Notes: generated from the letters alone by a model not told the origin. DNA of 64,000 nt from Spirochaetia bacterium (GCA_963677925.2 CAXXYH010000003.1:64001-128000), one strand, 5' to 3'; shown: positions 8,340-64,000, numbered from the stretch's first letter. Translations and numbers: made by a program.

Positions 8340-8412
8340 CTAAATTGCCGGCGCTCATATTTTCACCGACGACTTAGAAAAATCTGATTAAGGCATCTGT
8401 CTTTCAATAAAA

Positions 8413-11322: not shown

Positions 11323-11325
11323 TTT

Positions 11326-14061: not shown

Positions 14062-16079
14062 TTCAGCCCCTTCAGAATTACTTCCGCTTCTGATTCCAGC
14101 TGCCAGAACTCTTCCAGTATTTTATCCGCAGGCTTTGGAGGTTCGTATTTATAAAAATACTTGTTCGGCAGGATTTCATAACCAAGCTGCGGCCGGTCTT
14201 CCCATTTGATAATGGGCTTGGAAATCTCCCTTTCAAGAAAAGCCTCTATATCTTCACCATAGGGAATGTATTCATCATCCTGAATGTAATGCTTATGTGT
14301 ATATTTTGCAGAAAGATCCCAATCCTTTATTGCCTTAAAAATCTTCGCGGCTGTTTTATGTACTTCAAGCTCGGGGAAATCAGTCCTGGCTAAATCTGAT
14401 AGCTGGGCTTCAAAAGATTTTGATTCTTTGGTTTGAAGTACAGAATATTCTTTTTCAATACCATCAGGGGTAATAAGCTTTACAGTAAAATCAAGATCAC
14501 CATAGAGATCAAATTTCTTTTTCACATTCGTATTGGAAAGCTGGACATCGAAATTTTCGGTAACCATCATCGGCTCATCATTTTCATCAGTCTGCCAGAA
14601 AGTAACGGCAACCTTATGATATGCAAAATCACTGTTCTGAAATATCTTTACATTTTCATTATCATAACCGGACTTCCTTCCAAGATTATACTGTTCTTTA
14701 ATCCAGGCTCTATGTTCATTCGTCATTCGATTACGCTTGTTGCCGAAGGATTTAGGTTCTTTTTCAAACTGCTGTCTGGCATCAATAATCATCACCTTGC
14801 CTTTATGTTCTACAGGCCTATTGTTTGAAAGCAGCCAGATATAGGTATAGATGCCGGTATTATAGAACATCTGATCCGGCAGCATAACAATTGCATCAAG
14901 CCAGTTATTTTCAATGATCCATCGGCGGATTTCACTCTCTCCGGATCCGCAGTCACCGTTACTCAATGGTGAACCATTAAAGATTATTGCAATTTTGCTG
15001 CCGCCGTCATCTACAGGCTTCATCTTAGTCAGCATTGTCTGTAAAAATAGTAATGCACCGTCATTGGTTCTGGGCATTCCGGCTTTGTAGCGGGTGCTTC
15101 CCAGCTTGCGGGCTTCTTTTTCATAACCGTCTTCACCGCCCCAGGTTACGCCGAAAGGAGGATTTGAAAGCATGTAATCAAATTGATCGTGTTCTCCGGA
15201 AAGCTGGTCCCCGGGATCATCGCTTTCCGGATCATGAGGAATAAGTGAATTTCCGTAATAAATAAAGGCGTTGGAATCGTTCTTAATGAGCATATCAGCC
15301 TTACAGATAGCATAGTTCTGGGGCTGAATTTCATGGCCATGGAGGGTAATCAGGGTTTCGGTTCTGGACTTTTCATCTGAATCATGTATTCTGTCCACAA
15401 CATGGGCTTTTGCAACGGAAAGCATTCCGCCGGTTCCGCAAGCAGGATCGTAGATGGAAACATGCTTATCTTTAACGGAGATATCAAGAAGTTCTACCAT
15501 TAGACGAATGACTTCTCTTGGCGTAAAATGTTCTCCGGCTTCTTCCCCGCTCTGCTCTGAGAATCGTCTTAACAATTCTTCATAGATATATCCCATCTCA
15601 AGGTTACTGATTTTCTCAGGGCTCAGATCTTCATTTCGATACTGGTTAATGATTGGAGCAAGGCGGCCGTTCTTTTTCATCTGGCCGATGATAGCTCTGT
15701 AATTGAAATGATCTATGATCTCCTGGATATTCTCGGAAAAACCGTTGATATAATCCCGGAAGTTCTTTTCCATTATGGTATGATCTTCCTGATAGATTGA
15801 ATCCAGGGTCCAGTTTGTTGAATTTGAGAAATTGTAGGTGGATAATTCCATCTTTTTGACCATCTCATCAAGGTTCCTGGAAGCAAGATCAGGACGTTTT
15901 GAGTGTATTTCTGCTTTTGTTGCTTCTCTCATTTCAATAAGAACACATTCAATGCGCCTGATTACTATAATAGGGAGAATAACGTTTTGATATTCGTATG
16001 CTTTGAACTTTCCCCGAAGGCGTTCAGCTGATTTCCATATTTCATTCGCTAAATTATTAAGTATTTCCTGTGTTGCCAC
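14058..16079 (-). CDS. hsdM: Type I RM N6-adenine methyltransferase
   Basis: GEHFTPREV, YDPACGTGGML, NPPFG. Confidence 0.95.
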   Translation of the reverse strand: MATQEILNNLANEIWKSAERLRGKFKAYEYQNVILPIIVIRRIECVLIEMREATKAEIHSKRPDLASRNLDEMVKKMELSTYNFSNSTNWTLDSIYQEDHTIMEKNFRDYINGFSENIQEIIDHFNYRAIIGQMKKNGRLAPIINQYRNEDLSPEKISNLEMGYIYEELLRRFSEQSGEEAGEHFTPREVIRLMVELLDISVKDKHVSIYDPACGTGGMLSVAKAHVVDRIHDSDEKSRTETLITLHGHEIQPQNYAICKADMLIKNDSNAFIYYGNSLIPHDPESDDPGDQLSGEHDQFDYMLSNPPFGVTWGGEDGYEKEARKLGSTRYKAGMPRTNDGALLFLQTMLTKMKPVDDGGSKIAIIFNGSPLSNGDCGSGESEIRRWIIENNWLDAIVMLPDQMFYNTGIYTYIWLLSNNRPVEHKGKVMIIDARQQFEKEPKSFGNKRNRMTNEHRAWIKEQYNLGRKSGYDNENVKIFQNSDFAYHKVAVTFWQTDENDEPMMVTENFDVQLSNTNVKKKFDLYGDLDFTVKLITPDGIEKEYSVLQTKESKSFEAQLSDLARTDFPELEVHKTAAKIFKAIKDWDLSAKYTHKHYIQDDEYIPYGEDIEAFLEREISKPIIKWEDRPQLGYEILPNKYFYKYEPPKPADKILEEFWQLESEAEVILKGLK

Positions 16080-16469
16080 GATATTCCTCTTTTGTATTGC
16101 CCAGCAGAGGGGCCTATGATAATAGTTTCTCTTTATCTGATTATTATTTATATCATATTTTGATATATTTTAGGGTTAAATTATATTGGATATAGATTGA
16201 ACTTGTGAACCTTAATGAACTTTTTTTGAAAAGAAAAATATAAAATATAGAAGTGTATAGTATAAGTAAAAGAAGTGAACTCATTCTTGGCAAAGGCCTC
16301 CCCCCTACTGTGGGCATAAATCATTGTAATTACTTTATATGTAGCAGATTGCATAAGATAGTGTTACTCCATTTTTTCACAAAAATATATAAATTTTTGT
16401 GAAATTTCTCGGGTATCAATTGTTACAAGCACCAAAATTTTCACCGACGTTTTCCCGGCAATTGCGGTA

Positions 16470-17285
16470 TCATCTTATAAACCGCTCCACAGACATTGTC
16501 TCAGTATCTATCACTACAAATACCAGTGCTCCGGTTTGACCTGGTTGTATCACAATCGTGTTGCCTACTTCGTGCTTCCATTTCCCGCTGACATCGGGTG
16601 ATTCATGAATATGGCCATGTAATGAAAATAAAGGTTGTCTTTGCTTTATGAAATTATATATGGAATCGGAGCCAACACGTCTTCCATCCATACAGACATC
16701 CAGACCAAGCTTTGAAGGCGGCATGTGAATAATATAAACAACCTTTTCATTACCGGATTTCGGCAAATTCTCGAGTTCATCATGTATAGTAGGTAGTTTT
16801 TTTACATATCCGGACCAATCGACAATTTCAGTCCATCCGTCCTCAGTCGAAAGCAGCGCAGTTCCGTTTTGTATTTGAGGAAGGTAATTGTCATTATCCA
16901 TCCGGCATCTATCTTTTAATCTGAACGGGTAATCGACAACCCAGTTCATTCCAATAAAATCAAAATCATTAATCGTTATTATTTTTTGAGCGATATCATG
17001 GATATAATCAAATCGACTGCATTCTTCCTGAAAAAGTTCGTCAAAAATCTTTAGATCATCATTTCCCGGGTAACTTAGATAATGGATTCCAAGCTGCTCG
17101 AATCTTTCAAAATGCTTATGCAGTTTATCCTTTATAAAAGCATCCTGTTTGTGCAGATCAATATTCTTAGGAAACATATCTCCACCATTAATCACAACGT
17201 CAGGATGTAATTCATCAGCAACATTCACTAATGCATCATATTTTCGATTATCACCGTGAAGATCTGTAATGTATATTATTTTCAT
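16470..17285 (-). CDS. Metallophosphoesterase (Icc/calcineurin-like)
   Basis: TDLHG, GGD, PGNDD, HGHIHE motifs. Confidence 0.9.
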   Translation of the reverse strand: MKIIYITDLHGDNRKYDALVNVADELHPDVVINGGDMFPKNIDLHKQDAFIKDKLHKHFERFEQLGIHYLSYPGNDDLKIFDELFQEECSRFDYIHDIAQKIITINDFDFIGMNWVVDYPFRLKDRCRMDNDNYLPQIQNGTALLSTEDGWTEIVDWSGYVKKLPTIHDELENLPKSGNEKVVYIIHMPPSKLGLDVCMDGRRVGSDSIYNFIKQRQPLFSLHGHIHESPDVSGKWKHEVGNTIVIQPGQTGALVFVVIDTETMSVERFIR

Positions 17286-17294
17286 CGTTTCCTT

Positions 17295-17864
17295 TTAATC
17301 GCCAAATATTCCGCCGTTAGCGCCTCTATCCTGAAACTTATGTTTTTCTACTAAAGCGCCAAGAGGGTCCTCGACTTCCAATATTTCACTTTTTGAAAGA
17401 AGATTGAATGTATTTAATAAAAAAGCTTCTTTATCTTCTGCCTTTTCATATTCACTGAGAATTGAAATCTCCTGATACAAACTGCTGAAGCGTCTATGCC
17501 ATAGATCCCGTTCCGTTTGGGCCTTGTCCAGCCATTCAATGAGATCGAGCCTATCAATTGAGTTCAACCTTTCTTCTGCTTCATCTTCTGAATTGAAAAT
17601 ACCGATATATATTGAATGCCAGACAGCGATATAAACAAGACCGTTATTTACATCTTTTGGCCAACGACATTTATCACAATACAGTGTCTCAGTAATAATT
17701 CCCGTTCTTATCCTGCATCCTCTTGTTATATCTCCCGGCTCATATGTATCCATAAAGTTTTCAAAAACTTTGGTCTGAACAGAATTGATTTCATTACCGC
17801 AATCAGGACATTTTATCGAATCCCCCAGTATTAATGTGTCGAATAATCCCATATTATGCCCCAA
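17295..17864 (-). CDS. Hypothetical zinc-ribbon protein
   Basis: MGLFD...CPDC...QTK...CDKC. Confidence 0.7.
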   Translation of the reverse strand: MGHNMGLFDTLILGDSIKCPDCGNEINSVQTKVFENFMDTYEPGDITRGCRIRTGIITETLYCDKCRWPKDVNNGLVYIAVWHSIYIGIFNSEDEAEERLNSIDRLDLIEWLDKAQTERDLWHRRFSSLYQEISILSEYEKAEDKEAFLLNTFNLLSKSEILEVEDPLGALVEKHKFQDRGANGGIFGD

Positions 17865-18830
17865 AAAAGTATAGTTTTACGCAGTTTTATACGTTACTAA
17901 CGTATATCTCATTATAACCTGAATCTAATAAAAATAATTCCGGTGTTTTGCATTTTAATACCGGGGTGACAATTAGCAAGTTTATTTTAAATATCTCATG
18001 ACTCATCTATAAAGCCATCTACTAAAACATATTGTAATACAAGAATCAGTAAATATCAAACATTCATAAAGTTGGCCGTCACATCAACCTTAACAATTAC
18101 AGATATTGGTATAGTATTGGTGGCATGGATGATGTAAAGAGGGCCGCGGTGTGAAACACGGCGGTGCGCGGGCCTTTTTACGGCTGGAAGCCAGACGCTC
18201 CCCCCCAGCGGGGGGGACGGGAGGGGGGGGAGAATACAATAACTTACCTTTCGGCGCCGGTCCGGGAGGAAGCCGTAAAAAGCCGACCCGAAGATAGCAG
18301 CTATTCAATAGCCTTATTTACCGCTCATGAGGGTTACTATAAAAATGAGGTTCCAATGCCTATTACGTTATGATTCTATTGAATGGCTGTTTGATGAGGG
18401 CCGGAAAAGTTCCAGGTAACAACCCAGGCACACAACCGCGCAGGGACGCGCGGGACCTGCAGGTACAGCCCTGGACTAAATGGCATGCCCGGAAAAGGGA
18501 GCGCGGAAGCGCGGTTTCCGGGTGTTGAAACAAAGAGTGTCAGAGCAAAAACGGGAGCGTGAAAATGCAAAGCATTTTACGCGGGTTTTTGCAGCGGCTA
18601 CGGATTAAAAGCCCGCCGGTCTGCGTGAGCAGTCCGGGAGTATTGTCTTTTTTTCTTGTAATAAGGAATTTATCACGGGCGGAGCCGGTGATAAATATTG
18701 GTATTACTAAACAACTATCTGAACAATATTCGGCTAACACCATAGCTTTTAAAATAATATTATTTACTATACGCTCATACTGTATCATAATATGCATATA
18801 ATTTAATTCGTTATTAAGAGGTGAATGTAG

Positions 18831-19313
18831 ATGGCAAAAATACAGTGTCCTTATTGTCGAAAACCCATCGATGAAAATATAGAATATTGTTCTTTTTGTG
18901 GTAAATCTTTAGATGTAGATACAATCAAACTCAGTAAAGAGAAGCAGAAGAAAAGAAATAAACGGATTTGGATATTTGTTGCTATTTCTATTGCTTTTTT
19001 TACGATTGTCATGTTCATTCCATCGGATGGGTCGTCATCAAGTAGTAGTACAGCACAAACTAAAGAAGTTGTCACAAATAGTTCTTTAGATTCCTCTGTA
19101 TCTCAAGTAAAAGTGTGGATGAGAAGTAATTTAAAAGATCCAGATTCATTGGAATATTTAGAATGGTCAGCTGTACAAAAGACAAACACCGGAGATTATA
19201 GAGTTCGTGTTAAATATAGAGCAAAGAATTCTTTCAATGCAGTGGTTATTGAAAACAAGTTATTCACGTTGGATTCTAATGGTGTTGTTATAGATGTGGT
19301 GGATTATCATTAA
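18831..19313 (+). CDS. Zinc-ribbon, single-TM membrane protein
   Basis: CPYC/CSFC, hydrophobic segment, LKDPDS...AKNSF C-terminal domain; GAGG SD. Confidence 0.8.
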   Translation: MAKIQCPYCRKPIDENIEYCSFCGKSLDVDTIKLSKEKQKKRNKRIWIFVAISIAFFTIVMFIPSDGSSSSSSTAQTKEVVTNSSLDSSVSQVKVWMRSNLKDPDSLEYLEWSAVQKTNTGDYRVRVKYRAKNSFNAVVIENKLFTLDSNGVVIDVVDYH

Positions 19314-19470
19314 ATATAAATTATTCTTTGTCAGCAAATATGATAGCATTTAGCTTACGGAATTGGTAGAAATAGGCAAGAATTAAGAACATTACAAGGC
19401 AATCATATTTGACTAATTCCTTATATAGTAGTAATATAGAGAAATAGATAGTAATCTACGGAATTGAGCG

Positions 19471-33886: not shown

Positions 33887-34227
33887 TTCGATATGCCCAA
33901 GTTAAAAAAATTAGGAAACCCATGAGCTTTCTCCAGTTCAAAAAGCTTCTTAATTCGTAGATTCCCAGGCAAATTCGGATACCTTAACCCTACTTGCCTG
34001 CTTTAAGAAAGCTCATTCGGTTCAGGCAAATTCACATATATTTTTGCTATCTTGGCCTGCACAGATTAATTCAATGAACCTTTAATTTACGCAGACCATC
34101 AGGTCTGATTTATTTTAAACCCAAATATGAAATTTACCTAACCAATTATTGGCCAGGAGTTAAGCTTTTATTGTAAAAAACAAGTTTAAAGAATAGACAA
34201 AGTTTACTGATATAGTCGTAAATATAA
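33887..34227. other. Gene-less cassette with inverted repeats
   Basis: No ORF >=60 aa; complementary cores gttatattt/aaatataac. Confidence 0.75.
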
Positions 34228-34417
34228 CGACCAAATTGAGTTGCGCCCTCGATCCTGGACACTGGAATAAGTTAAATGCTGCTGTTTAGTCGGAAAAGTA
34301 ACGGTTTTAGTAATGTGTGTCCAGGAATTGGCGTGGTTCCAGAGTGGAGCGATTAGCGGAACGTCTCCGCTGGAACCATGACAATAGACGGCGTCAACTC
34401 CAATTTATTTGTTATGT
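34222..34417 (-). repeat. attC family A, long-loop variant
   Basis: Side arm tcctggacac...gtgtccagga with ~55-nt loop. Confidence 0.85.
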
Positions 34418-34438
34418 TCATTTTTTTAATTATAATTA

Positions 34439-35476: not shown

Positions 35477-35619
35477 TTTTTACCTCTTATTGAGATAATT
35501 TTTATAATTTTAAGTATAATACCAAATTTTAATAAAAAAAATATTGTATTTGGTATCGAATAAACATTATGGTAAATTAACTAAAATTTAAAAATTATAT
35601 TTTAGTTAATTGTAAATGA

Positions 35620-35816
35620 ACATAACGACCTTTTGAGCTGCGCCCTCGTTCCTGGCCAGAAGAGTTATATTGTTCTTGCGGTTTGTGAGTAAAATGGGTC
35701 AGATTTATTGAAGGTCTGGCAAGGAATTGGCGCGGTTTTTGAGTGAGCGATTAGCGAACGGCTGAAAGCAAAAACCGTGACAATAGACGGCGTCTGCTCC
35801 AAAAGACTTGTTATGT
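35620..35816 (-). repeat. attC family A, long-loop variant
   Basis: acataac...gttatgt. Confidence 0.85.
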
Positions 35817-37312: not shown

Positions 37313-37514
37313 ACATAACGGCCCAATTGAGCTGCGCCCTCGATCCTGGACATCCGAATGAGCTAGTTCTTCCTGTTTTTGGTTTAAAAGGGTGGGTTGT
37401 AGAAATGGTGTGGCCAGGAATTGGCGCGGTTCCAGAGCGGAGGGCGATAAGCCCGCAGCGTCTCTGCTGGAACCGTGACAATAGACGGCGTCAGCTCCAA
37501 TTGATATGTTAACT
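37313..37514 (-). repeat. attC family A, long-loop variant
   Basis: acataac...gttaact. Confidence 0.85.
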
Positions 37515-37934
37515 TCCAGTATCGAGGGTTAGATGTTTCCTCTTTTAATAATCACAACCGAAAAGCAAATATTTATTCAGTAAAGAAATGGGTTGTAAGT
37601 GCGATTCTTTATCTTTCCAGTAATGAAATATTTATCAATTTGGATTAAAAATGGTAGCCGAAGAGCAGTAAAAGAAAGCAAGCATGCCTTAAAAATGCCA
37701 TGAGGACTATTTATAGCCTAAAAGATAAGTACAAAACCGAAAAACATGAATGGGGTGCGCGGGATGAGCGAGGCCCAGCGTGGAGAACAGGCGAATATGC
37801 GTGGGATTTCTCTTGAGCGCGGAAGCCTGTTCAATAAGGGCTCGAACCGTGAATATAGTGAAAAATGCTCATGCTTGAGGCCCTTATCCAGAAAGGCAAA
37901 AATATTATAAAGCCCTCCCCGGAGGGGAAGTTAA
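37515..37934. other. Gene-less structured cassette (ncRNA candidate)
   Basis: No ORF >=60 aa; cores gttaacttcc/ggaagttaac; nested inverted repeats. Confidence 0.7.
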
Positions 37935-38125
37935 CGACCCAATTGAGCTGTTCCCTCGATCCTGGACAAAGATTTATTTATTTCTTATGGTTTTGGGGGT
38001 GAAAAAGTAGGTTTTAGTGATGGTTTGGCCAGGAATTGGCGCGGTTCCAGAGTGGAGCGAAGAGCGGAACGTCTATGCTGGAACCGTGACAATAGACGGA
38101 ATCTGCTCCAATTGACTTGTTATCT
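37929..38125 (-). repeat. attC family A, long-loop variant
   Basis: agttaac...gttatct. Confidence 0.85.
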
Positions 38126-38133
38126 TCATACTT

Positions 38134-42267: not shown

Positions 42268-42409
42268 ATTTAACGACGTTTTGAGTTGCAAAATCGTTCG
42301 GTGTCCACGCCGAATTGGCGCGATTCTGGAGTGCAGCGCGATCAGCGCGGAACGTCTTTAGCCAGAATCGTGACAATAGATTTTGACTACTCCAAAACTT
42401 TTGTTAAAT
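42268..42409 (-). repeat. attC family A
   Basis: atttaac...gttaaat. Confidence 0.9.
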
Positions 42410-42496
42410 GCTTATACCCAACTTACCCTGCACATAAAATAAAAATGTGGCAAAGCCTGGAGCCCGAATGGGCGGAACATATAACCCCTGTTATAT
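42410..42496 (-). repeat. Right half of split family-B att site
   Basis: aaaataaaaatgtggc...catataacccct gttatat matches the right half of 61740-61830. Confidence 0.8.
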
Positions 42497-43057
42497 AAAG
42501 TACTTGGGCCACCTAATTAAAAACCCTAAATACATGGATGTATTTAGGGCAGTATTGATTTTGGTTTTATATTTCAATATCTGTAATACGAATAAATAAA
42601 TTACTAATTCTATCAATAATTTTTCAAACACTTCATGATTATCAATTACTTCTATCATAGTCTTTAAACCAGTTTTGTTTTTATCTTTCATTCTTAAATA
42701 TTTGATATAACTTCCATGGTATTCAACTATCTCATAATATGAATGAACATATTTATTTCTATCTTCTTCAACTCTTTTTAATTCTTTCTTCAGTTCTGAA
42801 AATTCGTCAATCACAATACTTTTAACATTATTCTGATACATTATTGATTCAATAATATTTATGATTTTATAGAAACTAATCTCGGAGGCTATAATTCTTG
42901 CATATTCAACATTCCCCAATAATTGCCCCAACAATTCAACAAGTGCATGTTCCAATTCTTGAAAGGAAAAAATAATTAATCCTAATGTACTTGTCGGATC
43001 ATTCATGAATAAATTATTATTTGCATTTTCCATCCAATCGGGTATTTTTGAATCCAT
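42491..43057 (-). CDS. Cassette: hypothetical protein, HEPN-like RNKYVH
   Basis: FQELE...RNKYVH; stop lies in the family-B core. Confidence 0.6.
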   Translation of the reverse strand: MDSKIPDWMENANNNLFMNDPTSTLGLIIFSFQELEHALVELLGQLLGNVEYARIIASEISFYKIINIIESIMYQNNVKSIVIDEFSELKKELKRVEEDRNKYVHSYYEIVEYHGSYIKYLRMKDKNKTGLKTMIEVIDNHEVFEKLLIELVIYLFVLQILKYKTKINTALNTSMYLGFLIRWPKYFI

Positions 43058-43091
43058 TTCATCCTCTATCTAAGATTTAAGTTTTAACTTG

Positions 43092-43445
43092 TCAAACAAA
43101 TTGAACTAATATTATCACACCTTCTGCCCATTCATATTTCTCAATTATGCGTTGAACTATTTTTGTAACAAACTCTATATAATTGTTTTTGGCACTATAA
43201 GATATTGGATTTTCTCCATTAGCAGTAGTCAATGTAACAATTAATTTATTAACTCCTTCTTCATTTAATAGGGCAACTCTAAAAGCTATTCTAGTTGCCC
43301 ATGCATCAGTTTCAATTTTTATATTTTTAAAAGCTTCATATTCTAACCATTCTTTTCTACTGATATCATATGGTAGAGTTAAATCATAAGAGAATAATGG
43401 TATAGTTAAAGCAAAAAGCATAATACTGAAGATTAATTTTTTCAT
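43092..43445 (-). CDS. Cassette: secreted hypothetical protein
   Basis: Signal peptide; SD. Confidence 0.7.
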   Translation of the reverse strand: MKKLIFSIMLFALTIPLFSYDLTLPYDISRKEWLEYEAFKNIKIETDAWATRIAFRVALLNEEGVNKLIVTLTTANGENPISYSAKNNYIEFVTKIVQRIIEKYEWAEGVIILVQFV

Positions 43446-43530
43446 TCTTACTCCTAACTTCTAATTCAATCTTTTATGTTCAACACGAGCCAGGACGGCG
43501 AGTGCCAAATCTCCGCTGCCCAAGTATTTT

Positions 43531-43628
43531 ATATAACGTCCCGGGGTTATATGACGTTTTTATTTTTCTTAATTTTACCACCACTTACCCGTATTTACCA
43601 ATCATAAACTATTGGCCCATGTCTGTGC
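43531..43628 (-). repeat. Left half of split family-B att site plus linker
   Basis: atataac gtcccggggttatatgacgtttttatttt. Confidence 0.8.
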
Positions 43629-43772
43629 ATTTAACGACGAAATAAGTTGCGCCCTCGATCCTGAGCCGCAGGCGAAGGAATTGGCGCGGTTTCTGAGTGA
43701 GGGCCATTGCCCGAACGTCTTTAGCAGAAACCGTGACAATAGACGGCGACAACTTCATTTCATTTGTTATGT
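43629..43772 (-). repeat. attC family A
   Basis: atttaac...gttatgt. Confidence 0.9.
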
Positions 43773-44792: not shown

Positions 44793-44842
44793 TAAATTTC
44801 CTCTTTAAATTATTTTATCACTAAATCGTAAATCTTAAATAC

Positions 44843-44986
44843 ACATAACGACGAAATAAGTTGCGCCCTCGATCCTGAGCGTAGCGAAGGAATTGGCGTG
44901 ATTCTGGAGTGGAGCGCGATCAGCGCGGAACGTCTCCGCCAGAATCATGACAATAGACGGCGACAACTTCATTTCATTTGTTAAAT
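44843..44986 (-). repeat. attC family A
   Basis: acataac...gttaaat. Confidence 0.9.
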
Positions 44987-45147
44987 GCCGATAATATCGA
45001 CTCATTTCAGAAAAATAAAAATGAGCTGAAGGCCAAGCTCAATTATAACAATGCTTATATTCTCCAAGAATGTACAAGTTTCTGATTACTTTTAATAATA
45101 TCGCCAAAAGTACACGGATGTACTTTTGAAACTGTATTCTAATATAT

Positions 45148-45912
45148 TTACAAATCTTCTCCAGTTTTATTTTTATATGCAGCAAACAAATAGTTACATA
45201 TAGATTTTGTAGAATCAATTGTCAGTCTTGCATGATGTTCTTTAAGTTTATAATATTTCCCCTTAGATTTTCCATGTGAATCCGAATGTTGATTTCTTAT
45301 CTCACTAATTCCTTGTACTATTGAAAAAAATCCAGATAGAATTTTCTTAAAATATTCTTCTTTATAATCTATTGGATCTAAGTGAAGAAAATTAGAAACT
45401 TTCTTATACAGTTTTATTAGATCATCATTACTACTAATTTCTATAGACTGCTTTTCAAGTATTGTTTTTAATAATGTTTCAAGTAATGTTCGAGAATTTG
45501 TTACTGCACCGTCAAAATCTTTATCCATTAATTTACGATCAATTTTTTCTATCTGTTCTATAGCGTAATCAAAGCTAATTTTCTCTATATGGTTTTCAAT
45601 TTTGATATTATCTACAGGAATTTTCATTGTTGGATCTATAAAAGATTCAATCCAACAAAGATCAATAGAATTTTCTTCAACTGGATATAAAATATGGAAA
45701 GCATCCAAGATTATTTCATTATCATCATGAGAAAGTTCTTGTAACTTTTCATAAGTTACAATATCAGAGTATAATTTTAGTCCAGTACGATATGAATTAA
45801 AGGCTCGACCAAAGCTACTTGATTCAATAAACTCATATGAACATTTTTTAAGTAAAATTGCTAAATCATTCCTTTTTTTATAAATCAAATATTCTAAAAT
45901 TCTATCTTCCAT
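45148..45912 (-). CDS. Cassette: abortive-infection C-terminal (Abi_C) family protein
   Basis: GAVTNSRTLLE...IRNQHSDSHG. Confidence 0.8.
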   Translation of the reverse strand: MEDRILEYLIYKKRNDLAILLKKCSYEFIESSSFGRAFNSYRTGLKLYSDIVTYEKLQELSHDDNEIILDAFHILYPVEENSIDLCWIESFIDPTMKIPVDNIKIENHIEKISFDYAIEQIEKIDRKLMDKDFDGAVTNSRTLLETLLKTILEKQSIEISSNDDLIKLYKKVSNFLHLDPIDYKEEYFKKILSGFFSIVQGISEIRNQHSDSHGKSKGKYYKLKEHHARLTIDSTKSICNYLFAAYKNKTGEDL

Positions 45913-46054
45913 TCTTCCTCTTTATAGCGAGCCAAGGACGGCGAGCAAAAAACCAACTAAAATCAGAAATTGTACATAGATTATGTGACGTTTTATTTTT
46001 CTTATTGTATTCTATCACACTCATCATTTTCCCAAAACTGTTATTTTTTCGTGC

Positions 46055-46194
46055 ATTTAACGACAATTTGAGCTGCCTGGCGGCGCGAGTCTTCGAGCGC
46101 ATTGGCGTGATTCTGGAACGTAGCGCGATCAGCGCGAAGTGTCTCTGCCAGAATCATGACAATAGCCAGGACTGCTCCAAATTTTTTGTTAAAT
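46055..46194 (-). repeat. attC family A
   Basis: atttaac...gttaaat. Confidence 0.9.
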
Positions 46195-52462: not shown

Positions 52463-52601
52463 ACATAACGACGATTTGAGTAGCGAAACCGGCCGAGTCT
52501 TCGAGGCTTGGCGTAGTTCTGGAACGTAGCGCGATCAGCGCGGAGTGTCTTTAGCCAGAACTATGACAAAGGTTTTGACTACTCCAAATCTCTTGTTATC
52601 T
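52463..52601 (-). repeat. attC family A
   Basis: acataac...gttatct. Confidence 0.9.
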
Positions 52602-53241
52602 ATATTATTTTTCTTATCAAAATTCCTCGTTCTGCAAAATATTTTTTAAATAGTTCCAATTGTATTTTGTAATTTTGTTGAGTTCTTATTTCATCTCCTG
52701 AAGGATTATTAATATAAATAGTATTGTTCAAATTATCGACACCTGATACAACAACAAGATGACCACCTTTTTCCCCATTATATGTCATATCCGGTTTACG
52801 GATTAAATAATGTACCGACACAATAAATATATTGCCATCTAATGTTGCATTAAATATCTCATCTGTGTTTAAAGGTGAAACAGAGTTTGCATCTAACTGA
52901 AAACTATCCTTTAAATATTCACAAAACGGTACATAAAATAATCCATCAATACTTTCCTTATTAACTTTAGATCCACCATATTCAGTACATTCTTTTGCTA
53001 ATTGGATTATAGGTGGTGAATCAATCTTCCAGTATTCTAAAATCATTTTCAAACATGCCATTCCGCAAATGTTTTTAGCCCATAATTCATATTCTTTAAC
53101 ATTATTTGCTCCAGAATATTCCCATAAAGGATCATTTGTTGCTTGGATTTTACCAGATATAATTTCTCCTACTATCTCACGAGACATCCATTGTGAATAA
53201 TAAGGCATTTCATTAAGTATAATTTTTTGACTATTAACCAT
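52600..53241 (-). CDS. Cassette: C39-like cysteine peptidase (copy 1)
   Basis: PYYSQ, CGMACLKM, GHLVVVSG, INNP. Confidence 0.8.
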   Translation of the reverse strand: MVNSQKIILNEMPYYSQWMSREIVGEIISGKIQATNDPLWEYSGANNVKEYELWAKNICGMACLKMILEYWKIDSPPIIQLAKECTEYGGSKVNKESIDGLFYVPFCEYLKDSFQLDANSVSPLNTDEIFNATLDGNIFIVSVHYLIRKPDMTYNGEKGGHLVVVSGVDNLNNTIYINNPSGDEIRTQQNYKIQLELFKKYFAERGILIRKII

Positions 53242-53771
53242 TTTCCCAACTTAAAATTTGATAGACAATAATATAGAGCTTTATTCCCAATTTTTTTGGG
53301 TTAATTCTATCACCTAACATAATCATTTACATTTATTCAATAGCTTAGTGCTTTTGTATATTCATATTCTTCTTATTTACCTCATAATACGGTAAAATCT
53401 ATTCAAAGACATTAGATCTATTTCCGAATGTTCAGACCGAGCCTTATATACAAATTTCTAATAACCACATGTACAGAAATTCTTGTATTTTTTCATTTTA
53501 AAGCTGTTTTCAGACTATTGGAACTATATTTTATTAATTATTCTATATTGTTCTTTTGGATATAGGCAATTGTTAAGTAAGTCTTTAGCTGATAAATACT
53601 TAATGATTTTAAATGCAATTGAAAATCATTAATTTCCTTTATTCTTATAATTCTTATAGGCTTAAGATTTTAATAACAAACTGCTTTTTTAAAGAATTCT
53701 AATTGTATTAAGCTTGTACACTAATTCATTAGAAATTTGATGACAGAGTTATCCGCCTGTACCCGAATTAT

Positions 53772-53909
53772 AGATAACGACGATTTGAGTAGCGAAACCG
53801 GCCGAGTCTTCGAGGCTTGGCGCAGTTCTGGAACGCAGCGCGATCAGCGCGGAGTGTCTCTGCCAGAACTGTGACAAAGGTTTTGACTACTCCAAATCTC
53901 TTGTTAAAT
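53772..53909 (-). repeat. attC family A
   Basis: agataac...gttaaat. Confidence 0.9.
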
Positions 53910-55294: not shown

Positions 55295-55434
55295 ATTTAA
55301 CGACGTTTTGAGCTGCCTGGCGGCGCGAGTCTTCGCGCGCATTGGCGTGATTCTGGAGTGCAGCGCGATCAGCGCGGAACGTCTATGCCAGAATCATGAC
55401 AATAGCCAGGACTGCTCCAAAACTTTTGTTAAAT
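55295..55434 (-). repeat. attC family A
   Basis: atttaac...gttaaat. Confidence 0.9.
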
Positions 55435-55520
55435 GCTATACCCAAACAACCCAATCCATAAAATAAAAATGTGGCGCAGCCCGAAGCCCGAATGGGCTGA
55501 GCATATAGCCCCTGTTATAG
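55435..55520 (-). repeat. Right half of split family-B att site
   Basis: aaaataaaaatgtggcgcagccc...catatagcccct gttatag. Confidence 0.8.
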
Positions 55521-55619
55521 GAAGTATTTTGGCTCTTGAGTCAGACCGTACATCGGAGATAGGGCTGGCCTCTTAAACATACAACTTTCAACTTTAACAG
55601 TATCCTAAAACAAACTTTG

Positions 55620-56747
55620 TCAATTAAAAGCATACTTCACTAAAGCTATTTCATTCTCACTATCACTACCTTTTTCAAATAAAAATAAGTTATCTCCAGT
55701 TTGAAGTTTTCTTACAACTTCGATGTCTTTCAAATCCTCATCAATAGTCCCAATCCATCTTGGACTATTTAACTCTCTTATATCATAAACAAAATAATTC
55801 CCGATTAAAATATTATTAAAATCAAAATCTAAATCAAAATAACTAAACAAGTTTATTTCATCTGTTGAATTACATTTTTGTAGAAATTCATATTTTTTTT
55901 CACTATCTAATTTTATTATGCTCCAAAAATACTCTTCTGAATTTAAACCTCTTGCTCCATCACTTACTATAATATCATTATATATATTAAATCCATTGTC
56001 CTCTAAACTGATAGAATTTATATCGACCAATTCATAATTATTAGAAATATTAGTAATATCATAAACAATCATTTGATTTGTTATTGTAAAAGGATTACCA
56101 TCTTTATCAACTTTAAGCTCACTTGAAAAAGTGTATAAATAATTTGAATTTAAGTAAATTTCTTTATCAATTACTCCTTCGAAAGAATCTAAATAATGTC
56201 TTTCAATTTCTAGCATATTATCAGCATCCAAAATTAATAATAGTTTATAGTATGAAAATGAATTAGAATCTAAAATATAAATTTTATTATCCATACATCT
56301 TAAACTTAAATAATAGGTAGTGTTTAAATTATAGGTATTATTTTCACTAATAGAATATTTAAAAGATGGATTTGTTATATCCTCAATCAAATATACCAGA
56401 CAATCCGTTGACCCTAGAAGATACAAATAATTTTCATAAATATACAATTGTTTAAAATCAGGAACAATATCATTATAATAATTTGAATTATCAACCCAAG
56501 GGATGGTGGAAACTTCAATCAATCCTTCCAAATCTATCAAGTGCACCATCCCATCAGTACTATAATATACTAAAACTTTAGAAGTCTCAGATATAAACGC
56601 AGAGAATGAATCTGCTTTTTCATCTAAAATAAGTTTTGTATCTTTAGAAAATATTTGATTGAAATGGTATCCATTTTGATAATATGGAAAAAAGTTTTTA
56701 CATGAGGTTATTCCTAATAATAATAAAAATAATAAAATCCTTTTCAA
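55620..56747 (-). CDS. Cassette: lipoprotein, probable beta-propeller
   Basis: Lipobox-like LLGITSC; repeated YDI-type strands. Confidence 0.7.
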   Translation of the reverse strand: MKRILLFLLLLGITSCKNFFPYYQNGYHFNQIFSKDTKLILDEKADSFSAFISETSKVLVYYSTDGMVHLIDLEGLIEVSTIPWVDNSNYYNDIVPDFKQLYIYENYLYLLGSTDCLVYLIEDITNPSFKYSISENNTYNLNTTYYLSLRCMDNKIYILDSNSFSYYKLLLILDADNMLEIERHYLDSFEGVIDKEIYLNSNYLYTFSSELKVDKDGNPFTITNQMIVYDITNISNNYELVDINSISLEDNGFNIYNDIIVSDGARGLNSEEYFWSIIKLDSEKKYEFLQKCNSTDEINLFSYFDLDFDFNNILIGNYFVYDIRELNSPRWIGTIDEDLKDIEVVRKLQTGDNLFLFEKGSDSENEIALVKYAFN

Positions 56748-56860
56748 TACGTTTCATTCCTTATATATTGACATAATATATCAATTTTAAATTTTATTCT
56801 TTTTTTCTTATTGCCCGTCGGCCGGAGGTCCGGGCGTCTTTCTCTTAGCCAAAATATTTC

Positions 56861-56954
56861 CTATAACGTCCCGGGGTTATATGACGTTTTTATTTTTTAA
56901 TTTTACCACCAATTACCCGTATTTACCATTTCAAACTGTTTTACCATGTTGTGC
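56861..56954 (-). repeat. Left half of split family-B att site plus linker
   Basis: ctataac gtcccggggttatatgacgtttttatttt. Confidence 0.8.
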
Positions 56955-57092
56955 ATTTAACGACGATTTGAGTAGCAAAATCGGCCGAGTCTTCGAGGCT
57001 TGGCGCAGTTCTGGAACGTAGCGCGATCAGCGCGGAGTGTCTCTGCCAGAACTGTGACAAAGATTTTGACTACTCCAAATCTTTTGTTATAT
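56955..57092 (-). repeat. attC family A
   Basis: atttaac...gttatat. Confidence 0.9.
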
Positions 57093-57106: not shown

Positions 57107-57601
57107 TTATGGATAAAAATTATGTTCTGGGTCTACAAATACGACATAAAAAGTATTCTTATCAAATGCTTTTCCAGTTTTACAATGGATTTTCCCATTA
57201 TATTCATCTGGAACTACAAAACCAATAAGCCTTTTATCATATTCTAAACGGAATCTACCCCATAGTACTTGATGTGGAATATATGAAGGATGTTTTAATT
57301 TTGAATGCTTTGGAAATGCACCATAATTTACATAAATACTGTTTCGGTGCTTCCCACTTCCAATTTTCATATTTTCCCAATGCTCTAAATTTTCTCTACT
57401 ATACTCAATTAATTTCTTAAATATTTTATTACTATCATCCTTCTGCATATTCTTTATATCTTCACATAAAGACTGAGAGCTATCAAAATAGCTGAAATTA
57501 AATTTCATTCTATTGGATAGAGTATCGGTTTCAGAATCAAGACTAGCTTGTGGAAAAGAATTAATAAACGAATCTTTTTTACTATTCTGAAAATTTTTCA
57601 T
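57107..57601 (-). CDS. Cassette: hypothetical protein, partner of the ATPase (RelE-like fold possible)
   Basis: RFRL...RLIGF...FYVVFVDPEH; ATGA overlap. Confidence 0.65.
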   Translation of the reverse strand: MKNFQNSKKDSFINSFPQASLDSETDTLSNRMKFNFSYFDSSQSLCEDIKNMQKDDSNKIFKKLIEYSRENLEHWENMKIGSGKHRNSIYVNYGAFPKHSKLKHPSYIPHQVLWGRFRLEYDKRLIGFVVPDEYNGKIHCKTGKAFDKNTFYVVFVDPEHNFYP

Positions 57602-58734
57602 ATTTTAGGGACTCCCCCTAATTTACCACTAAAATAAATATTTGAAATTTGTCGATCATTCCTTACAATATCGCCAGGTAGCTCATCTAATCTATAAGCA
57701 AAACTACAATTTTTTTCTTTATTTACCAGAATTGTTTTGTATTTCCCAAGTTCGTCCATTATTTTATTATTATGTGTTGTAAAAATTAATTGAGCATCCT
57801 TTTGATTTGCTTCTTCATCAAATAACTTAATTAGTTTTGGTAAAATTAATGGATGGAGATTTATATCAAATTCATCCAGAACTAAAACTCCTCCCACATC
57901 CAAAATTGCTTTATATAAAAATAAAGTTGAATACAATGCTTTAGTTCCACTTGATTCATAATGTATTGTTAATGCTTCGACTCTATCCTCTAAATCATGA
58001 TAAAAAATAGGAAAATAACTTTTATCACCATTATCTAAATCGCGATCGAATATTTTTATATCATTAATTCCTACATCACATTTTTTTATTTGTTCAATTG
58101 CAAAAGTAAAAGCTTTTTCATTTTGTAAATATAATTCTGAGATCTTACTAATATCAGGGTTGAATCCATGATAACCAAAATTATTTACATTAGTTACAAT
58201 GTTTTTAAAAAATGAATACACATTATTGATTGATTTGAAATCATATTGATGTGCAGTACTTATAAACGAGGCATTATTTCTTAACTTCATCATTTTGATT
58301 TCATCATAATCTTTATTCGTGTATATAATTTCATTATATTTTCTTTCTACTATTTTAGTATTTCTTTTAATTTTCTTATATAAGACTTCTGAAATAACGT
58401 TTTGTTGTGTTGTCTCTAGCTCGTATCTATACTCGATATCATCAATCTTGAAAACAATATAAAAATCGGTTGGGTCCTTACTTTCAAAAAATGATTCTAA
58501 CATTATTTCATCGTCAGGTTTCATTCGAAATGAATCAATACAAAAATTCCTTATGAAATCTATAGTTTTTAATATATTTGTTTTTCCACTTGCGTTTCCA
58601 CCTTTTACACATATTACATTTGTAAATTCCTTTCCATGAGATATGCTTTCTGGACAATTATTATTCAAACGCAATGAAGCTTCAAAACCTTCTTTAAAAG
58701 AAAAGTAATTCCTAGCACCAAATTCTAATAACAT
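57598..58734 (-). CDS. Cassette: AAA_21/AbiEii-type ATPase
   Basis: GGNASGKT, ESSGT, LDEFDINLHP, QLIFTTH. Confidence 0.88.
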   Translation of the reverse strand: MLLEFGARNYFSFKEGFEASLRLNNNCPESISHGKEFTNVICVKGGNASGKTNILKTIDFIRNFCIDSFRMKPDDEIMLESFFESKDPTDFYIVFKIDDIEYRYELETTQQNVISEVLYKKIKRNTKIVERKYNEIIYTNKDYDEIKMMKLRNNASFISTAHQYDFKSINNVYSFFKNIVTNVNNFGYHGFNPDISKISELYLQNEKAFTFAIEQIKKCDVGINDIKIFDRDLDNGDKSYFPIFYHDLEDRVEALTIHYESSGTKALYSTLFLYKAILDVGGVLVLDEFDINLHPLILPKLIKLFDEEANQKDAQLIFTTHNNKIMDELGKYKTILVNKEKNCSFAYRLDELPGDIVRNDRQISNIYFSGKLGGVPKI

Positions 58735-60283: not shown

Positions 60284-60419
60284 GTATAACGACGATTTGA
60301 GTAGCAAAATTGATCCGCGTCTTCGCGGAATTGGCGCGATTCTGGAGTGAGCGATCAGCGAACGTCTTTAGCCAGAATCGTGACAATAAATTTTGACTAC
60401 TCCAAATCTCTTGTTAAAT
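60284..60419 (-). repeat. attC family A
   Basis: gtataac...gttaaat. Confidence 0.9.
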
Positions 60420-60508
60420 GCTTTTGCCCAACTTACCCAATTCATAAAATAAAAATGTGGCGTAGCCCAAGGAGCGCTTAGCGACGAAGCAAATAACCCC
60501 TGTTATAC
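60420..60508 (-). repeat. Right half of split family-B att site
   Basis: aaaataaaaatgtggcgtagccc...aataacccct gttatac. Confidence 0.8.
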
Positions 60509-60603
60509 GCTTTGAGCTTGACATACAGACCGTTCAACGGAGTTAGGTCTGGATTCTTTATCTAATATAGTAAAATTTTTATCGGAATAATTAATATTAT
60601 ACT

Positions 60604-61638
60604 CTAATCAACCCAAGCAGGTACTTCAGGAGCAAAATCTATTTTATTAGTTACTAACCGATATGCTAATGCCTCTCCTTCATGTTTTATATCAATAGAT
60701 GTTATTTCACATTTGAAAATATGTTGATATTTCTCAGTTAGAACTTCATACGCTTGTTGATTCAGGAGAGTATTAGAAGCTTCTGTATTTGACATTCGAC
60801 AAGCATATACTACAGGGACTCCAACAACAGTGTACTCATTATTTATGATATTCAACGAAACCTCTCCATAATCAATCCCAATGCCTAATCCTATATTATT
60901 TAAAATAACGTTAAAACATGATTTTGATTGATCATAAACTTTATTAAATTCTTCATGACATTCAATTGAACTTTTTAAAGCATAAAACAGAGCATCTTTT
61001 CCTGAATAAAAATCAGGAAAAAATGCAAGAATCCCATCGCCAGTAAATTTATCAAATATACCATAATTTTTTTGTATTATTTTAATTATTCCTTTTATTA
61101 GCTCATTTATAAATTCAGAGAATTTATCTGGGGTTCTTGACTTTAACATTAATTCTGTAGATCTTCTAATATCCAATGAAAACACAACAGCATTTGATTT
61201 TCTCACTTCCTCAAATTGCTTTCTAAATTTTTCATCATTTAGTAATTTGGTTTGAGCTGCTTCATTAATCCTATGATAAATGTATCTTAATTTATATTTA
61301 TTCTGAAGTTCTTCGAATTTATCCTTTAGCACTTTTGTTTCATCTCTTGGATTTTTATTAAAAGTACCAAGTTTTTTTGCCATATCTGCTATTTCATCAA
61401 AAGTGCTAAAATAGTTTTCAAATTTTATGGATTTTAATGTTTCGTCTAATTGATCCAACACATCAAAAGCTATTGATTTAATATTTCTATCAGAAAAATC
61501 TTTTAGAGCCTCAGCTAATTCTTTTATTTTTTCTTCTTCTAAATAACTTTTTGTTAAAATAGCATCTACTTTTGAAATATTATTTTTAGATTCTCTTAAT
61601 GCTTTTCCTGACTCTTCTTTTGCATCATCAAAATTCAA
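60604..61638 (-). CDS. Cassette: class III adenylate/guanylate-type nucleotide cyclase
   Basis: SLDIRRST, DKFTGDG, IGIDYG, GVPVVYACRM. Confidence 0.85.
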   Translation of the reverse strand: MNFDDAKEESGKALRESKNNISKVDAILTKSYLEEEKIKELAEALKDFSDRNIKSIAFDVLDQLDETLKSIKFENYFSTFDEIADMAKKLGTFNKNPRDETKVLKDKFEELQNKYKLRYIYHRINEAAQTKLLNDEKFRKQFEEVRKSNAVVFSLDIRRSTELMLKSRTPDKFSEFINELIKGIIKIIQKNYGIFDKFTGDGILAFFPDFYSGKDALFYALKSSIECHEEFNKVYDQSKSCFNVILNNIGLGIGIDYGEVSLNIINNEYTVVGVPVVYACRMSNTEASNTLLNQQAYEVLTEKYQHIFKCEITSIDIKHEGEALAYRLVTNKIDFAPEVPAWVD

Positions 61639-61739
61639 TATTACACCTCCAACTTTTTTATATCTAAAAATAAAAACTAAATATTAACTCGCCCGTCGGC
61701 CGGAGGTCCGGGCGTCTTATTCTTGTCAAGCTCATTGCG

Positions 61740-61830
61740 TAATAACGTTCCGGGGTTATGTGACGTACGGCGAAGCCGTATGTGGCGCAGCCCGAGGAGC
61801 GTAGTGACGAGCGAATAACCCTTGTTAGAC
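61740..61830 (-). repeat. Intact family-B attC-like site
   Basis: taataac gttccggggttat gtgacgtacggcGAAgccgtatgtggc...ataaccctt gttagac. Confidence 0.8.
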
Positions 61831-61879
61831 GATGTCACGAACCTTCTTCAAAGCCAAGCAACATGGATGTTGTTTGGCT

Positions 61880-62209
61880 TTAATCTATTAACATTTCCTG
61901 TAGCACATTCTTGACGAGATCTACTTCTTTTCTATTTATTTTACCAATCTTTTTAATTAATCTCTTCCTATCAACAGTTCTTAATTGATCTAAAACAATC
62001 CATCCATCTTTATTTTGAAACTTAACAGCTACACGAGTAGGATATGTATGTGATTTTGTTGTCATTGGAGCGATAATAATAGTCTGGATTGTTTCATTCA
62101 TTTCATTTGGTGAAATCACTAAACAAGGTCTTGTCTTTTTTATTTCATGGCCAACTGTTGGATCTAAGTTTATTAAATATACCTCATATTGATGAATTAC
62201 CATTCCCAT
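61880..62209 (-). CDS. mazF: PemK/MazF toxin
   Basis: NLDPTVGHEIKKTRPCLVIS, APMTT, DQLRTVD. Confidence 0.9.
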   Translation of the reverse strand: MGMVIHQYEVYLINLDPTVGHEIKKTRPCLVISPNEMNETIQTIIIAPMTTKSHTYPTRVAVKFQNKDGWIVLDQLRTVDRKRLIKKIGKINRKEVDLVKNVLQEMLID

Positions 62210-62445
62210 TCAAAATCACCCTGTTCAGTCAAATTGTCTAAAAGTAATGAATCATCCCCATTTTGATGCATCTTCATAAACTCTTCGGACCATCCTTCCC
62301 TTGGCTTTTTCTTTATTGGTCTAATCAGTATTTCTGTATTATGCACTTCTAATTCAACTTTTTCTTCAATATTTAACTGTTGCAAAATGCTCTTCGGAAT
62401 TCGTATTCCTTTTGAATTGCCTATAGGAACCACTGAAACTAACAT
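62197..62445 (-). CDS. mazE: AbrB/MazE antitoxin
   Basis: IGNSKGIRIPK; start MLVSV behind GAGG SD. Confidence 0.88.
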   Translation of the reverse strand: MLVSVVPIGNSKGIRIPKSILQQLNIEEKVELEVHNTEILIRPIKKKPREGWSEEFMKMHQNGDDSLLLDNLTEQGDFEWEW

Positions 62446-62460
62446 AATACACCTCTTTAT

Positions 62461-62493
62461 TGTAATTATATAGTAATTACATAAATTTGTCAA
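62461..62493 (-). promoter_or_regulatory. Consensus promoter with overlapping operator palindrome for mazEF
   Basis: TTGACA-17-TATAAT; tgtaattatatagtaattaca inverted repeat. Confidence 0.8.
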
Positions 62494-62546
62494 TCTTTGC
62501 TTGCCAAGGATGGCAAGCATCCTCTTTCTCTTAGGTTCGTGATTTC

Positions 62547-62642
62547 GTCTAACGCCCCGGGGTTATATGACGTTTTTATTTTTCTCAATTTTACCACCAA
62601 TTACCCGTATTTACCATTTCAAACTGTTTTACCATGTTGTGC
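62547..62642 (-). repeat. Left half of split family-B att site plus linker
   Basis: gtctaac gccccggggttatatgacgtttttatttt. Confidence 0.8.
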
Positions 62643-62781
62643 ATTTAACGACGATTTGAGTAGCGAAACCGGCCGAGTCTTCGAGGCTTGGCGTAGTTCT
62701 GGAACGTAGCGCGATCAGCGCGGAGTGTCTTTAGCCAGAACTATGACAAAGGTTTTGACTACTCCAAATCTCTTGTTATCT
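62643..62781 (-). repeat. attC family A
   Basis: atttaac...gttatct; appears identical to 52463-52601 internally. Confidence 0.9.
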
Positions 62782-62784
62782 ATA

Positions 62785-63438
62785 TTATTTTTCTTTATTT
62801 ATTAATTTTCTTATCAAAATTCCTCGTTCTGCAAAATATTTTTTAAATAGTTCCAATTGTATTTTGTAATTTTGTTGAGTTCTTATTTTATCTCCTGAAG
62901 GATTATTAATATAAATAGTATTGTTCAAATTATCGACACCTGATACAACAACAAGATGACCACCTTTTTCCCCATTATATGTCATATCCGGTTTACGGAT
63001 TAAATAATGTACCGACACAATAAATATATTGCCATCTAATGTTGCATTAAATATCTCATCTGTGTTTAAAGGTGAAACAGAGTTTGCATCTAACTGAAAT
63101 CTATCCTTTAAATATTCACAAAACGGTACATAAAATAATCCATCAATACTTTCCTTATTAACTTTATATCCACCATATTCAGTACATTCTTTTGCTAATT
63201 GGATTATAGGTGGTGAATCAATCTTCCAGTATTCTAAAATCATTTTCAAACATGCCATTCCGCAAATGTTTTTAGCCCATAATTCATATTCTTTAACATT
63301 ATTTGCTCCAGAATATTCCCATAAAGGATCATCTGTTGCTTGGATTTTACCAGATATAATTTCTCCTACTATCTCACGAGACATCCATTGTGAATAATAA
63401 GGCATTTCATTAAGTATAATTTTTTGACTATTAACCAT
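62785..63438 (-). CDS. Cassette: C39-like cysteine peptidase (copy 2)
   Basis: Near-identical to 52600-53241. Confidence 0.8.
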   Translation of the reverse strand: MVNSQKIILNEMPYYSQWMSREIVGEIISGKIQATDDPLWEYSGANNVKEYELWAKNICGMACLKMILEYWKIDSPPIIQLAKECTEYGGYKVNKESIDGLFYVPFCEYLKDRFQLDANSVSPLNTDEIFNATLDGNIFIVSVHYLIRKPDMTYNGEKGGHLVVVSGVDNLNNTIYINNPSGDKIRTQQNYKIQLELFKKYFAERGILIRKLINKEK

Positions 63439-63968
63439 TTTCCCAACTTAAAATTTGATAGACAATAATATAGAGCTTTATTCCCAATTTTTTTGGGTTA
63501 ATTCTATCACCTAACATAATCATTTACATTTATTCAATAGCTTAGTGCTTTTGTATATTCATATTCTTCTTATTTACCTCATAATACGGTAAAATCTATT
63601 CAAAGACATTAGATCTATTTCCGAATGTTCAGACCGAGCCTTATATACAAATTTCTAATAACCACATGTACAGAAATTCTTGTATTTTTTCATTTTAAAG
63701 CTGTTTTCAGACTATTGGAACTATATTTTATTAATTATTCTATATTGTTCTTTTGGATATAGGCAATTGTTAAGTAAGTCTTTAGCTGATAAATACTTAA
63801 TGATTTTAAATGCAATTGAAAATCATTAATTTCCTTTATTCTTATAATTCTTATAGGCTTAAGATTTTAATAACAAACTGCTTTTTTAAAGAATTCTAAT
63901 TGTATTAAGCTTGTACACTAATTCATTAGAAATTTGATGACAGAGTTATCCGCCTGTACCCGAATTAT

Positions 63969-64000
63969 AGATAACATATTAGATCCCAAGTTTTCTATAT
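63969..64000 (-). other. Probable attI junction (start of array)
   Basis: Core agataac is followed by atattagatccc..., not by any attC sequence seen here; truncated by window end. Confidence 0.5.

Follow-up and report, generated by a model that had tools for sequence, protein, structure and literature searches.

How does an integron come to hold a gene cassette that carries no attC site of the integron's own type? The question is raised by a stretch of 64,000 nucleotides from a Spirochaetia bacterium (GCA_963677925.2, CAXXYH010000003.1:64001-128000; G000:C3:64001-128000 in our numbering, and called the window below), at whose right end an integron array begins, its genes on the minus strand. 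The second cassette behind the likely attI of this array is a block of 2359 bp (60290..62648, minus strand, as are the other features of the block given below) that holds a mazEF toxin-antitoxin pair beside a gene resembling class III nucleotidyl cyclases. Two families of recombination sites meet in it: family A, the attC sites of the IntI array on contig C3, and family B, the sites of a second array on contig C4. The block is one IntI-type cassette made of two B cassettes, and was likely carried from a B array into the IntI array as a single circle, with mazEF as the passenger.

One integron cassette built from two cassettes of another family

At the level of family A, the block is a single cassette with paired cores. 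It starts at the A core R' (gcatttaac, 62641..62649), with the crossover between 62649 and 62648, and ends at the crossover 60290|60289 of its inner A attC (60284..60421, with R'' at 60413-60421). The two ends are complementary across the G|TT points in 9 of 9 letters, and the bounds hold because both neighbouring cassettes have other cores. The core pair named in the original prediction is not special to the block: the same core also opens 8 of the 25 A cassettes listed.

Read in gene direction, the A core is followed by a linker and a B 3' arm (together 62553..62640), which end at the B crossover 62553|62552. Then come mazE and mazF with class 2 hairpins and a plain B site (61737..61832, crossover 61746|61745); mazEF and this site make up a family-B cassette of 807 bp (61746..62552). 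The remainder consists of a class 1 hairpin, the cyclase gene, a second class 1 hairpin, and then a B core (R'', 60502-60510), a B 5' arm and a linker (together 60422..60510) that lead into the A attC. The cores gttaaatgc (60413), gcatttaac (62641), gttatacgc (60502), gcgtaataac (61737), gttagacga (61824) and tcgtctaac (62545), their order on the plus strand and the two hairpin classes were all found where they had been predicted. Pairing of the B cores by cassette, also predicted, is exact for mazEF, while the cyclase cores pair only with one extra T.

The two partial B sites at the margins of the block are the two halves of one composite site that has been opened at its inner A crossover. 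In a composite site, the inner hairpin of a B site is replaced by a linker, a complete A attC and a second linker. The downstream half in the block agrees with four intact composites of C4 at 83-85 of 98 letters and with the linker that opens a lipoprotein cassette of C3 at 93 of 96; this comparison gave no sign whether the linker had always belonged to the cyclase. In the 20 letters that lie past the core, mazEF pairs with its own far end at 16 positions and the cyclase with its own at 15, against 7 and 5 when the ends are crossed. The cyclase cassette, which begins after the plain B site and finishes in the composite, is thus one unit.

The mazEF cassette in two arrays

Between its B crossovers, the mazEF unit of the block shows no difference in 807 letters from G000:C4:1152070-1152876 in the second array. 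The identity reaches at most 2 letters past the G|TT point on the upstream side and 4 on the downstream side, and upstream of the unit the C3 copy retains composite-type letters up to 3 before the crossover. Further copies, at 90, 88 and 86%, lie in the B arrays of the relatives G001, G007 and G234, and in run X2 mazEF is followed by other sequence. In C3 the unit is flanked by a composite half and the cyclase, and in C4 by a two-gene cassette and a PIN-like cassette (labels read from the sequence, with no family scan); in 20 comparisons among the flanks of the five copies, which come from four genomes, no similarity appeared. Because mazEF is identical in two arrays, recurs in three relatives and has different neighbours in all five contexts, the B crossover points have been used. 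The prediction that both kinds of crossover had served the block agrees with this and, on the A side, with the paired cores and the place as cassette 2 behind attI. It had also been expected that each B cassette would appear with other neighbours elsewhere. This holds for mazEF, whose neighbours in C4, G001, G007 and G234 are others than the cyclase, so that the two are not always linked; for the cyclase, we found no second context, and neither 400 genomes of the class nor the genome contig collection held a close copy.

The direction of movement is given by the distribution of plain B sites, of which mazEF has one at its end while having no A site. They make up 17 of the 21 sites in C4, compared with 1 of 41 in C3, 0 of 31 in the A arrays of G001 that were read and 0 of 53 in G007, and the only one among the 41 C3 sites is that between mazEF and the cyclase. 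Since plain B sites are nearly confined to B arrays, and four genomes have mazEF as a cassette of such an array, it went from B to A. Without an A site, mazEF would have needed the nested A site of the cyclase cassette to enter the IntI array.

A second array with its own recombinase

The family-B array (G000:C4, ~1139.2-1160.3 kb) has 21 B sites, and its co-oriented cassettes are shuffled at G|TT. At its head, directly before the B sites, lies a co-oriented gene for a tyrosine recombinase of 357 aa. This protein scores 194.2 bits with TIGR02249, below the cut-off of 265, and lacks the IntI insertion (I2 helix), with gaps of ~31 and 9 residues against IntI. Among eight orthologues of at least 50% identity, B sites follow the recombinase in five, and the contigs of the other three end within ~320 bp of the gene. 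A motif (G000:C4:1139145-1139190) that separates the first B cassette from the stop of the recombinase gene is conserved in G000, G001, G004 and G007, and is the likely attachment site of the B array.

The two ends of a B cassette form an inverted repeat of ~20 letters. After near-duplicates were collapsed among the 19 cassettes parsed in C4 and the 28 in G001, all 16 unique B cassettes of C4 paired best with their own end, the mean being reached in none of 10,000 shuffles, as did 10 of 13 in G001. A 400-bp B cassette with no long open reading frame occurs twice in C4 (G000:C4:1149473-1150349) and about ten times in G001:C9:465867-486531.

Predicted folds also separate the two site families. 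In the circular form, the inner A attC folds more stably on the bottom strand than on the top (-40.7 against -34.5 kcal/mol; z -8.0), and its bottom strand has complementary R boxes, extrahelical bases and an unpaired spacer. An unpaired spacer and extrahelical bases are given as attC landmarks in PMC2727003. The B site is predicted to have a 4-nt bulge on one arm beside the core, with 5/9 spacing, and no two-sided unpaired spacer with extrahelical bases.

Composite sites and their split forms

Intact composites account for 4 of the 21 sites in C4, 1 of 33 in the G001 stretch read first and 2 of 15 in G007. Their split forms occur in C3, where each of the five downstream halves has an upstream counterpart at the A-level site that follows, an arrangement that simple counting puts at ~1 in 600,000 by chance. 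Two of these, besides the block, are cassettes with one B unit each: the lipoprotein cassette (55297..56960, minus strand), which is also in C4, and another at 42270..43635 (minus strand). The block alone has a plain B site between the halves. The fifth split composite of the array, at 44841-46061, is degenerate, and its B cores are no longer recognisable. Paired halves were also found in one cassette each of G007, G008 and the metagenome locus L098, and in G008:C456 (L032:480-2430) the split form stands directly behind an attI-like sequence.

The lipoprotein unit bears on whether composites recombine with one another at their A sites. Its copies in C3 and C4 are identical at 1545 of 1568 letters, and the linker before the C3 copy agrees with the unit's own C4 linker at 86 of 97; because the unit is near-identical and the linker is not, an A-by-A crossover between two composites has taken place at least once. 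The gene itself encodes 297 aa in C4 (G000:C4:1147931-1148824) and 375 aa in the window.

Scans for the halves were run more widely. An exact motif scan for the downstream half gave no match in metagenome contigs. The scan for the upstream half gave six loci in metagenome contigs, of which L095 and L098 are real and four are chance matches, and seven in genome contigs, of which L100 and L103 are chance; L101 and L105, titled Spirochaetia and possible repeats of counted stretches, were left out of the count, as were three Prochlorococcus records. Two further arrangements were noted. At G000:C3:53503-54133 a split composite has a truncated inner A site, and the B array of G001 repeats its gene in tandem, as plain-B copies. 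Locus L031 (G006:C36:176628-178754) runs from a truncated A site through a linker, a B 3' arm, a gene, a plain B site and a second gene to the contig end, and is possibly a second multi-unit block.

The integron around the block

The integrase gene of the A array (G000:C3:128199-129458, 419 aa) falls a little past the window's edge, at ~225 bp from the likely attI (63970..64000, minus strand, crossover 63975|63974), and is divergent from the cassettes. In a profile search its product scores 382.5 bits with TIGR02249 against the cut-off of 265, and the integron-specific insertion is present. Behind it stand ~40 family-A sites, whose pairing of cassette ends by A core, taken array-wide, was reached in 0 of 10,000 shuffles. 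Cassette 1 encodes a C39 peptidase, and its A attC (62640..62781, minus strand) gives the G of the block's upstream crossover. The peptidase cassette is duplicated, at 62646-63975 and 52466-53778 (98.4% identity), and since one copy sits at attI as cassette 1, the array shows a sign of recent IntI activity.

Elsewhere, the A array is broken by ~22 kb (window 1-19470 plus G000:C3:61500-64000) with its own tyrosine integrase, parts of which stretch are shared with G007. The A sites at 34221-34418, 35618-35816, 37313-37516 and 37929-38126 have ~60 extra letters in one arm, and a two-gene cassette at 57107-58734 encodes an AAA/AbiEii-type ATPase (PADLOC AbiLi, E 2e-64). The cassettes starting at 55301, 48626, 42274, 40614 and 29088 are plain A cassettes that open with a composite-type core, ~70 letters and a class 1 hairpin; two of the five have relatives, at 76% and 73%, in the B arrays of G007 and G001. 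Plain A cassettes with such a start may be former B cassettes. Rfam gave no match in the whole window.

The genes of the block

The mazEF cassette has the layout of a type II toxin-antitoxin system, with an AbrB-type MazE preceding a PemK/MazF toxin. The antitoxin gene (62197..62448, 83 aa) matches PF04014 at 37.1 bits (cut-off 24.7) and the toxin gene (61880..62209, 109 aa) PF02452 at 112.9 bits (cut-off 23.1), the two overlap by 13 bp, and NCBIfam equivalog models scored below their cut-offs. Class 2 hairpins lie at the leader (62498..62519) and trailer (61850..61881). A predicted sigma-70-type promoter stands before mazE (62465..62493; 12 of 12 positions matched, 17-nt spacer); a scan of the region gave 17 promoter sites against 21.5 expected, of which this was the only perfect one. 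Conceivably, transcription from this promoter would extend to the cyclase, or the toxin-antitoxin pair would stabilise the block.

The cyclase-like gene (60604..61638, 344 aa) has class 1 hairpins at its leader (61690..61714) and trailer (60521..60555), and its cassette ends in the composite site, that is, a B site with a complete A attC in its loop. The name cyclase, given in the original prediction, rests on a match to the structure of CyaB (3r5g, E 4.8e-8) and by database names among 1377 relatives and finds no backing in Pfam, which gave no match for the 344-aa protein; one of 16 relatives matches PF00211. D156 and D201 are invariant in all 16 aligned sequences, and we take them to be the two metal-binding aspartates of the catalytic core. 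The best database relative is 58% identical, and distant relatives (36-38%) occur in 2 of the 400 class genomes, where they are not flanked by these sites. PADLOC PycC profiles match the protein weakly (best E 4e-13). A 132-aa gene downstream has no Pfam match.

How the block may have been assembled and moved

We propose that a B-type crossover, likely made by the C4 recombinase, would have set mazEF beside the cyclase cassette. The pair would then have left as a circle of 2359 bp, whether through B crossovers that cut out two adjacent cassettes or through IntI acting on two nested A sites, and IntI would have recombined the inner A attC with attI, splitting the composite as it is now seen. 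Excision by IntI between nested A sites has a precedent, because the lipoprotein unit is near-identical in the two arrays while the linker of its C3 copy is closer to that of the block than to its own in C4. The nested site would thus act as an adapter that moves its own gene together with plain-B cassettes on the same circle. The order of these events, and the enzyme that cuts the B sites, are what we infer here.

Several observations weigh against this route. C4 has no cyclase, and in no B array did we see the two cassettes side by side, so that either C4 would since have lost it, the transfer being too recent for the mazEF copies to have diverged, or the pair would have formed only for a short time. 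No second complete two-unit block was found, and two downstream halves (G001:C6:941534 and G008:C388:534) have no upstream half. Nor is the segregation of the site families absolute: in G006:C15 (L076:9259-11106) a plain A cassette of 562 aa lies inside a class 1 B cassette, a nesting in the reverse direction. Neighbours can also persist, as in run X3, where mazEF at 97% is followed by the same PIN-like cassette as in C4. Finally, the lowest-energy model of the plain B site in place has no end-to-end fold (z -2.7), and an RNAalifold consensus of 16 plain B sites gave no end-to-end stem, with 1 of 24 pairs compensated; in the circle of its own cassette the site does fold end to end, at -21.2 against -16.3 kcal/mol (z -5.9).

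The main rival is that the cyclase cassette arrived alone and that a B recombinase later inserted a circle carrying mazEF at the split site's B crossover, so that the pair, though movable by A from then on, need never have moved together. We think this unlikely, yet it would spare C4 the loss of a cyclase, it explains a lone and difference-free mazEF duplicate, and its end product would be identical in sequence to that of a joint transfer. It is disfavoured by the geometry of the target, because the arms of a split site stand ~1.2 kb apart and cannot form a local hairpin, and because the 3' arm has 9 letters from ATAA to the core where the likely B-array attI (G000, G001, G004, G007) has 6; in addition, no other split composite examined holds a passenger. 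Less likely again is the view that IntI does everything: B sites would be odd attC sites, the C4 array a cluster of attC sites lacking an integrase (CALIN) served in trans, and the adjoining recombinase unrelated. The cores of the B sites are indeed AAC and GTT, with the break at G|TT, intI was present in all five relatives tested (in one of them in two pieces), and uptake of cassettes from CALINs by IntI has been proposed (PMC4889954). Yet plain-B cassettes, the commonest kind in C4 by the counts above, should then stand behind A crossovers, and none does among the 41, 31 and 53 sites of C3, G001 and G007; mazEF begins behind a B arm and not behind an A site, the B fold with its 4-nt bulge on one arm is unlike the attC features of PMC2727003, and the recombinase heads the B array in five relatives.

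Two explanations that dispense with site-specific capture of mazEF fare worse. Homologous recombination or gene conversion between repeated B arms could have copied mazEF into the cyclase cassette, given the ~20 near-identical letters upstream of the core that the B arms have in common. We consider this very improbable, because composite-type letters persist to 3 before the crossover and mazEF letters begin 4 after it, placing the switch in a 5-letter window around G|TT (one marker letter of which could be a point mutation), and because all five contexts break at cores. That the assembly gave the 807-bp repeat false flanks is harder still to credit. No run contig spans the repeat, the two junction contigs extend 26-27 letters beyond the crossovers, short of the 31 that the tool requires, and run X1 may be the source of the assembly. 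Against an artefact, the X1 mazEF contigs have depths of 14.4 and 12.5, compared with 6.5-8.3 for the unique flanks of both arrays, as expected for two copies; a difference-free contig joins the C3-specific linker end to mazEF over 27 letters; a flank swap would fuse arrays that are separate in G001 and G007; and the order of mazEF and the PIN-like cassette in C4 recurs in X3, an independent run.

Comparison with known systems

At the A level, the block is a cassette of a sedentary chromosomal integron, with an IntI above the family cut-off, a canonical hairpin whose bottom strand is the stronger, paired cores and a position behind attI, and a toxin-antitoxin cassette with its own promoter is ordinary integron cargo (PMC8876359, PMC8618304). 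It differs from an ordinary cassette in enclosing two complete cassettes of another site family and in having an attC that is the inner part of a larger composite. The nearest likeness is to fused cassettes such as blaOXA-10/aadA1 and blaGES-1/aacA4, in which two cassettes also travel on the attC of the second; there the first attC has been lost and the fusion is permanent (PMC8876359). The internal B site of the block is neither deleted nor truncated: it is whole, identical to its C4 copy and of the other family, so that a second enzyme could likely undo the fusion.

CALINs served in trans by IntI (PMC4889954) offer another parallel, in that a second array in the genome supplies the integron with cassettes. 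As far as that paper's available text goes, the proposal invokes neither a second enzyme nor an adapter, whereas the C4 array has a conserved recombinase of its own, non-canonical sites and an apparent need of a nested adapter. Treponema integrons share with C4 an integrase co-oriented with the array (PMC3607928, PMC4889954). The C4 recombinase differs from theirs in lacking the IntI insertion and in falling below the TIGR02249 cut-off.

IS1111-attC elements insert into attC sites. Group IIC-attC introns are likewise foreign DNA inside a recombination site (PMC3001079), but the insert of a composite is a recombination site with no coding part and is also the point at which the cassette opens. 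The cyclase invites comparison with Pycsar PycC, with which it shares the class III cyclase fold and the weak profile match; unlike in Pycsar, its cassette has one open reading frame and no transmembrane or TIR effector, and mazE and mazF have no PADLOC match.

By the published account, the I2 helix is what enables IntI to work on folded attC sites, and cassette capture has been tied to IntI with I2 (PMC7790495). The B system has neither I2 nor, in the predicted folds, the attC landmarks, and thus works like an integron without being filed as one. A literature search outside supplements and most subscription journals turned up no report in which an attC is nested in another site or two enzymes act as a shuttle.

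Implications

To these composite sites, the block adds the cleanest record of B crossover use and the only case seen of a passenger cassette. Its sequence is a direct record of a second site family cut at defined points, with the same 807 letters standing in two arrays with clean ends, and with three crossover points (inner A, composite B and plain B) the block is a small natural substrate. More broadly, we lean somewhat towards the view that IntI and a recombinase lacking I2 are coupled by nested adapters: IntI would lift B stretches, any B cassette could cross as a passenger and stay removable, and the mazEF pair would be a very recent crossing. If this is true, attC finders that see A sites alone would read such a block as one cassette, and integrons would have a route by which to gain cassettes that have no attC of their type, which would bear on the question of where cassettes originate.

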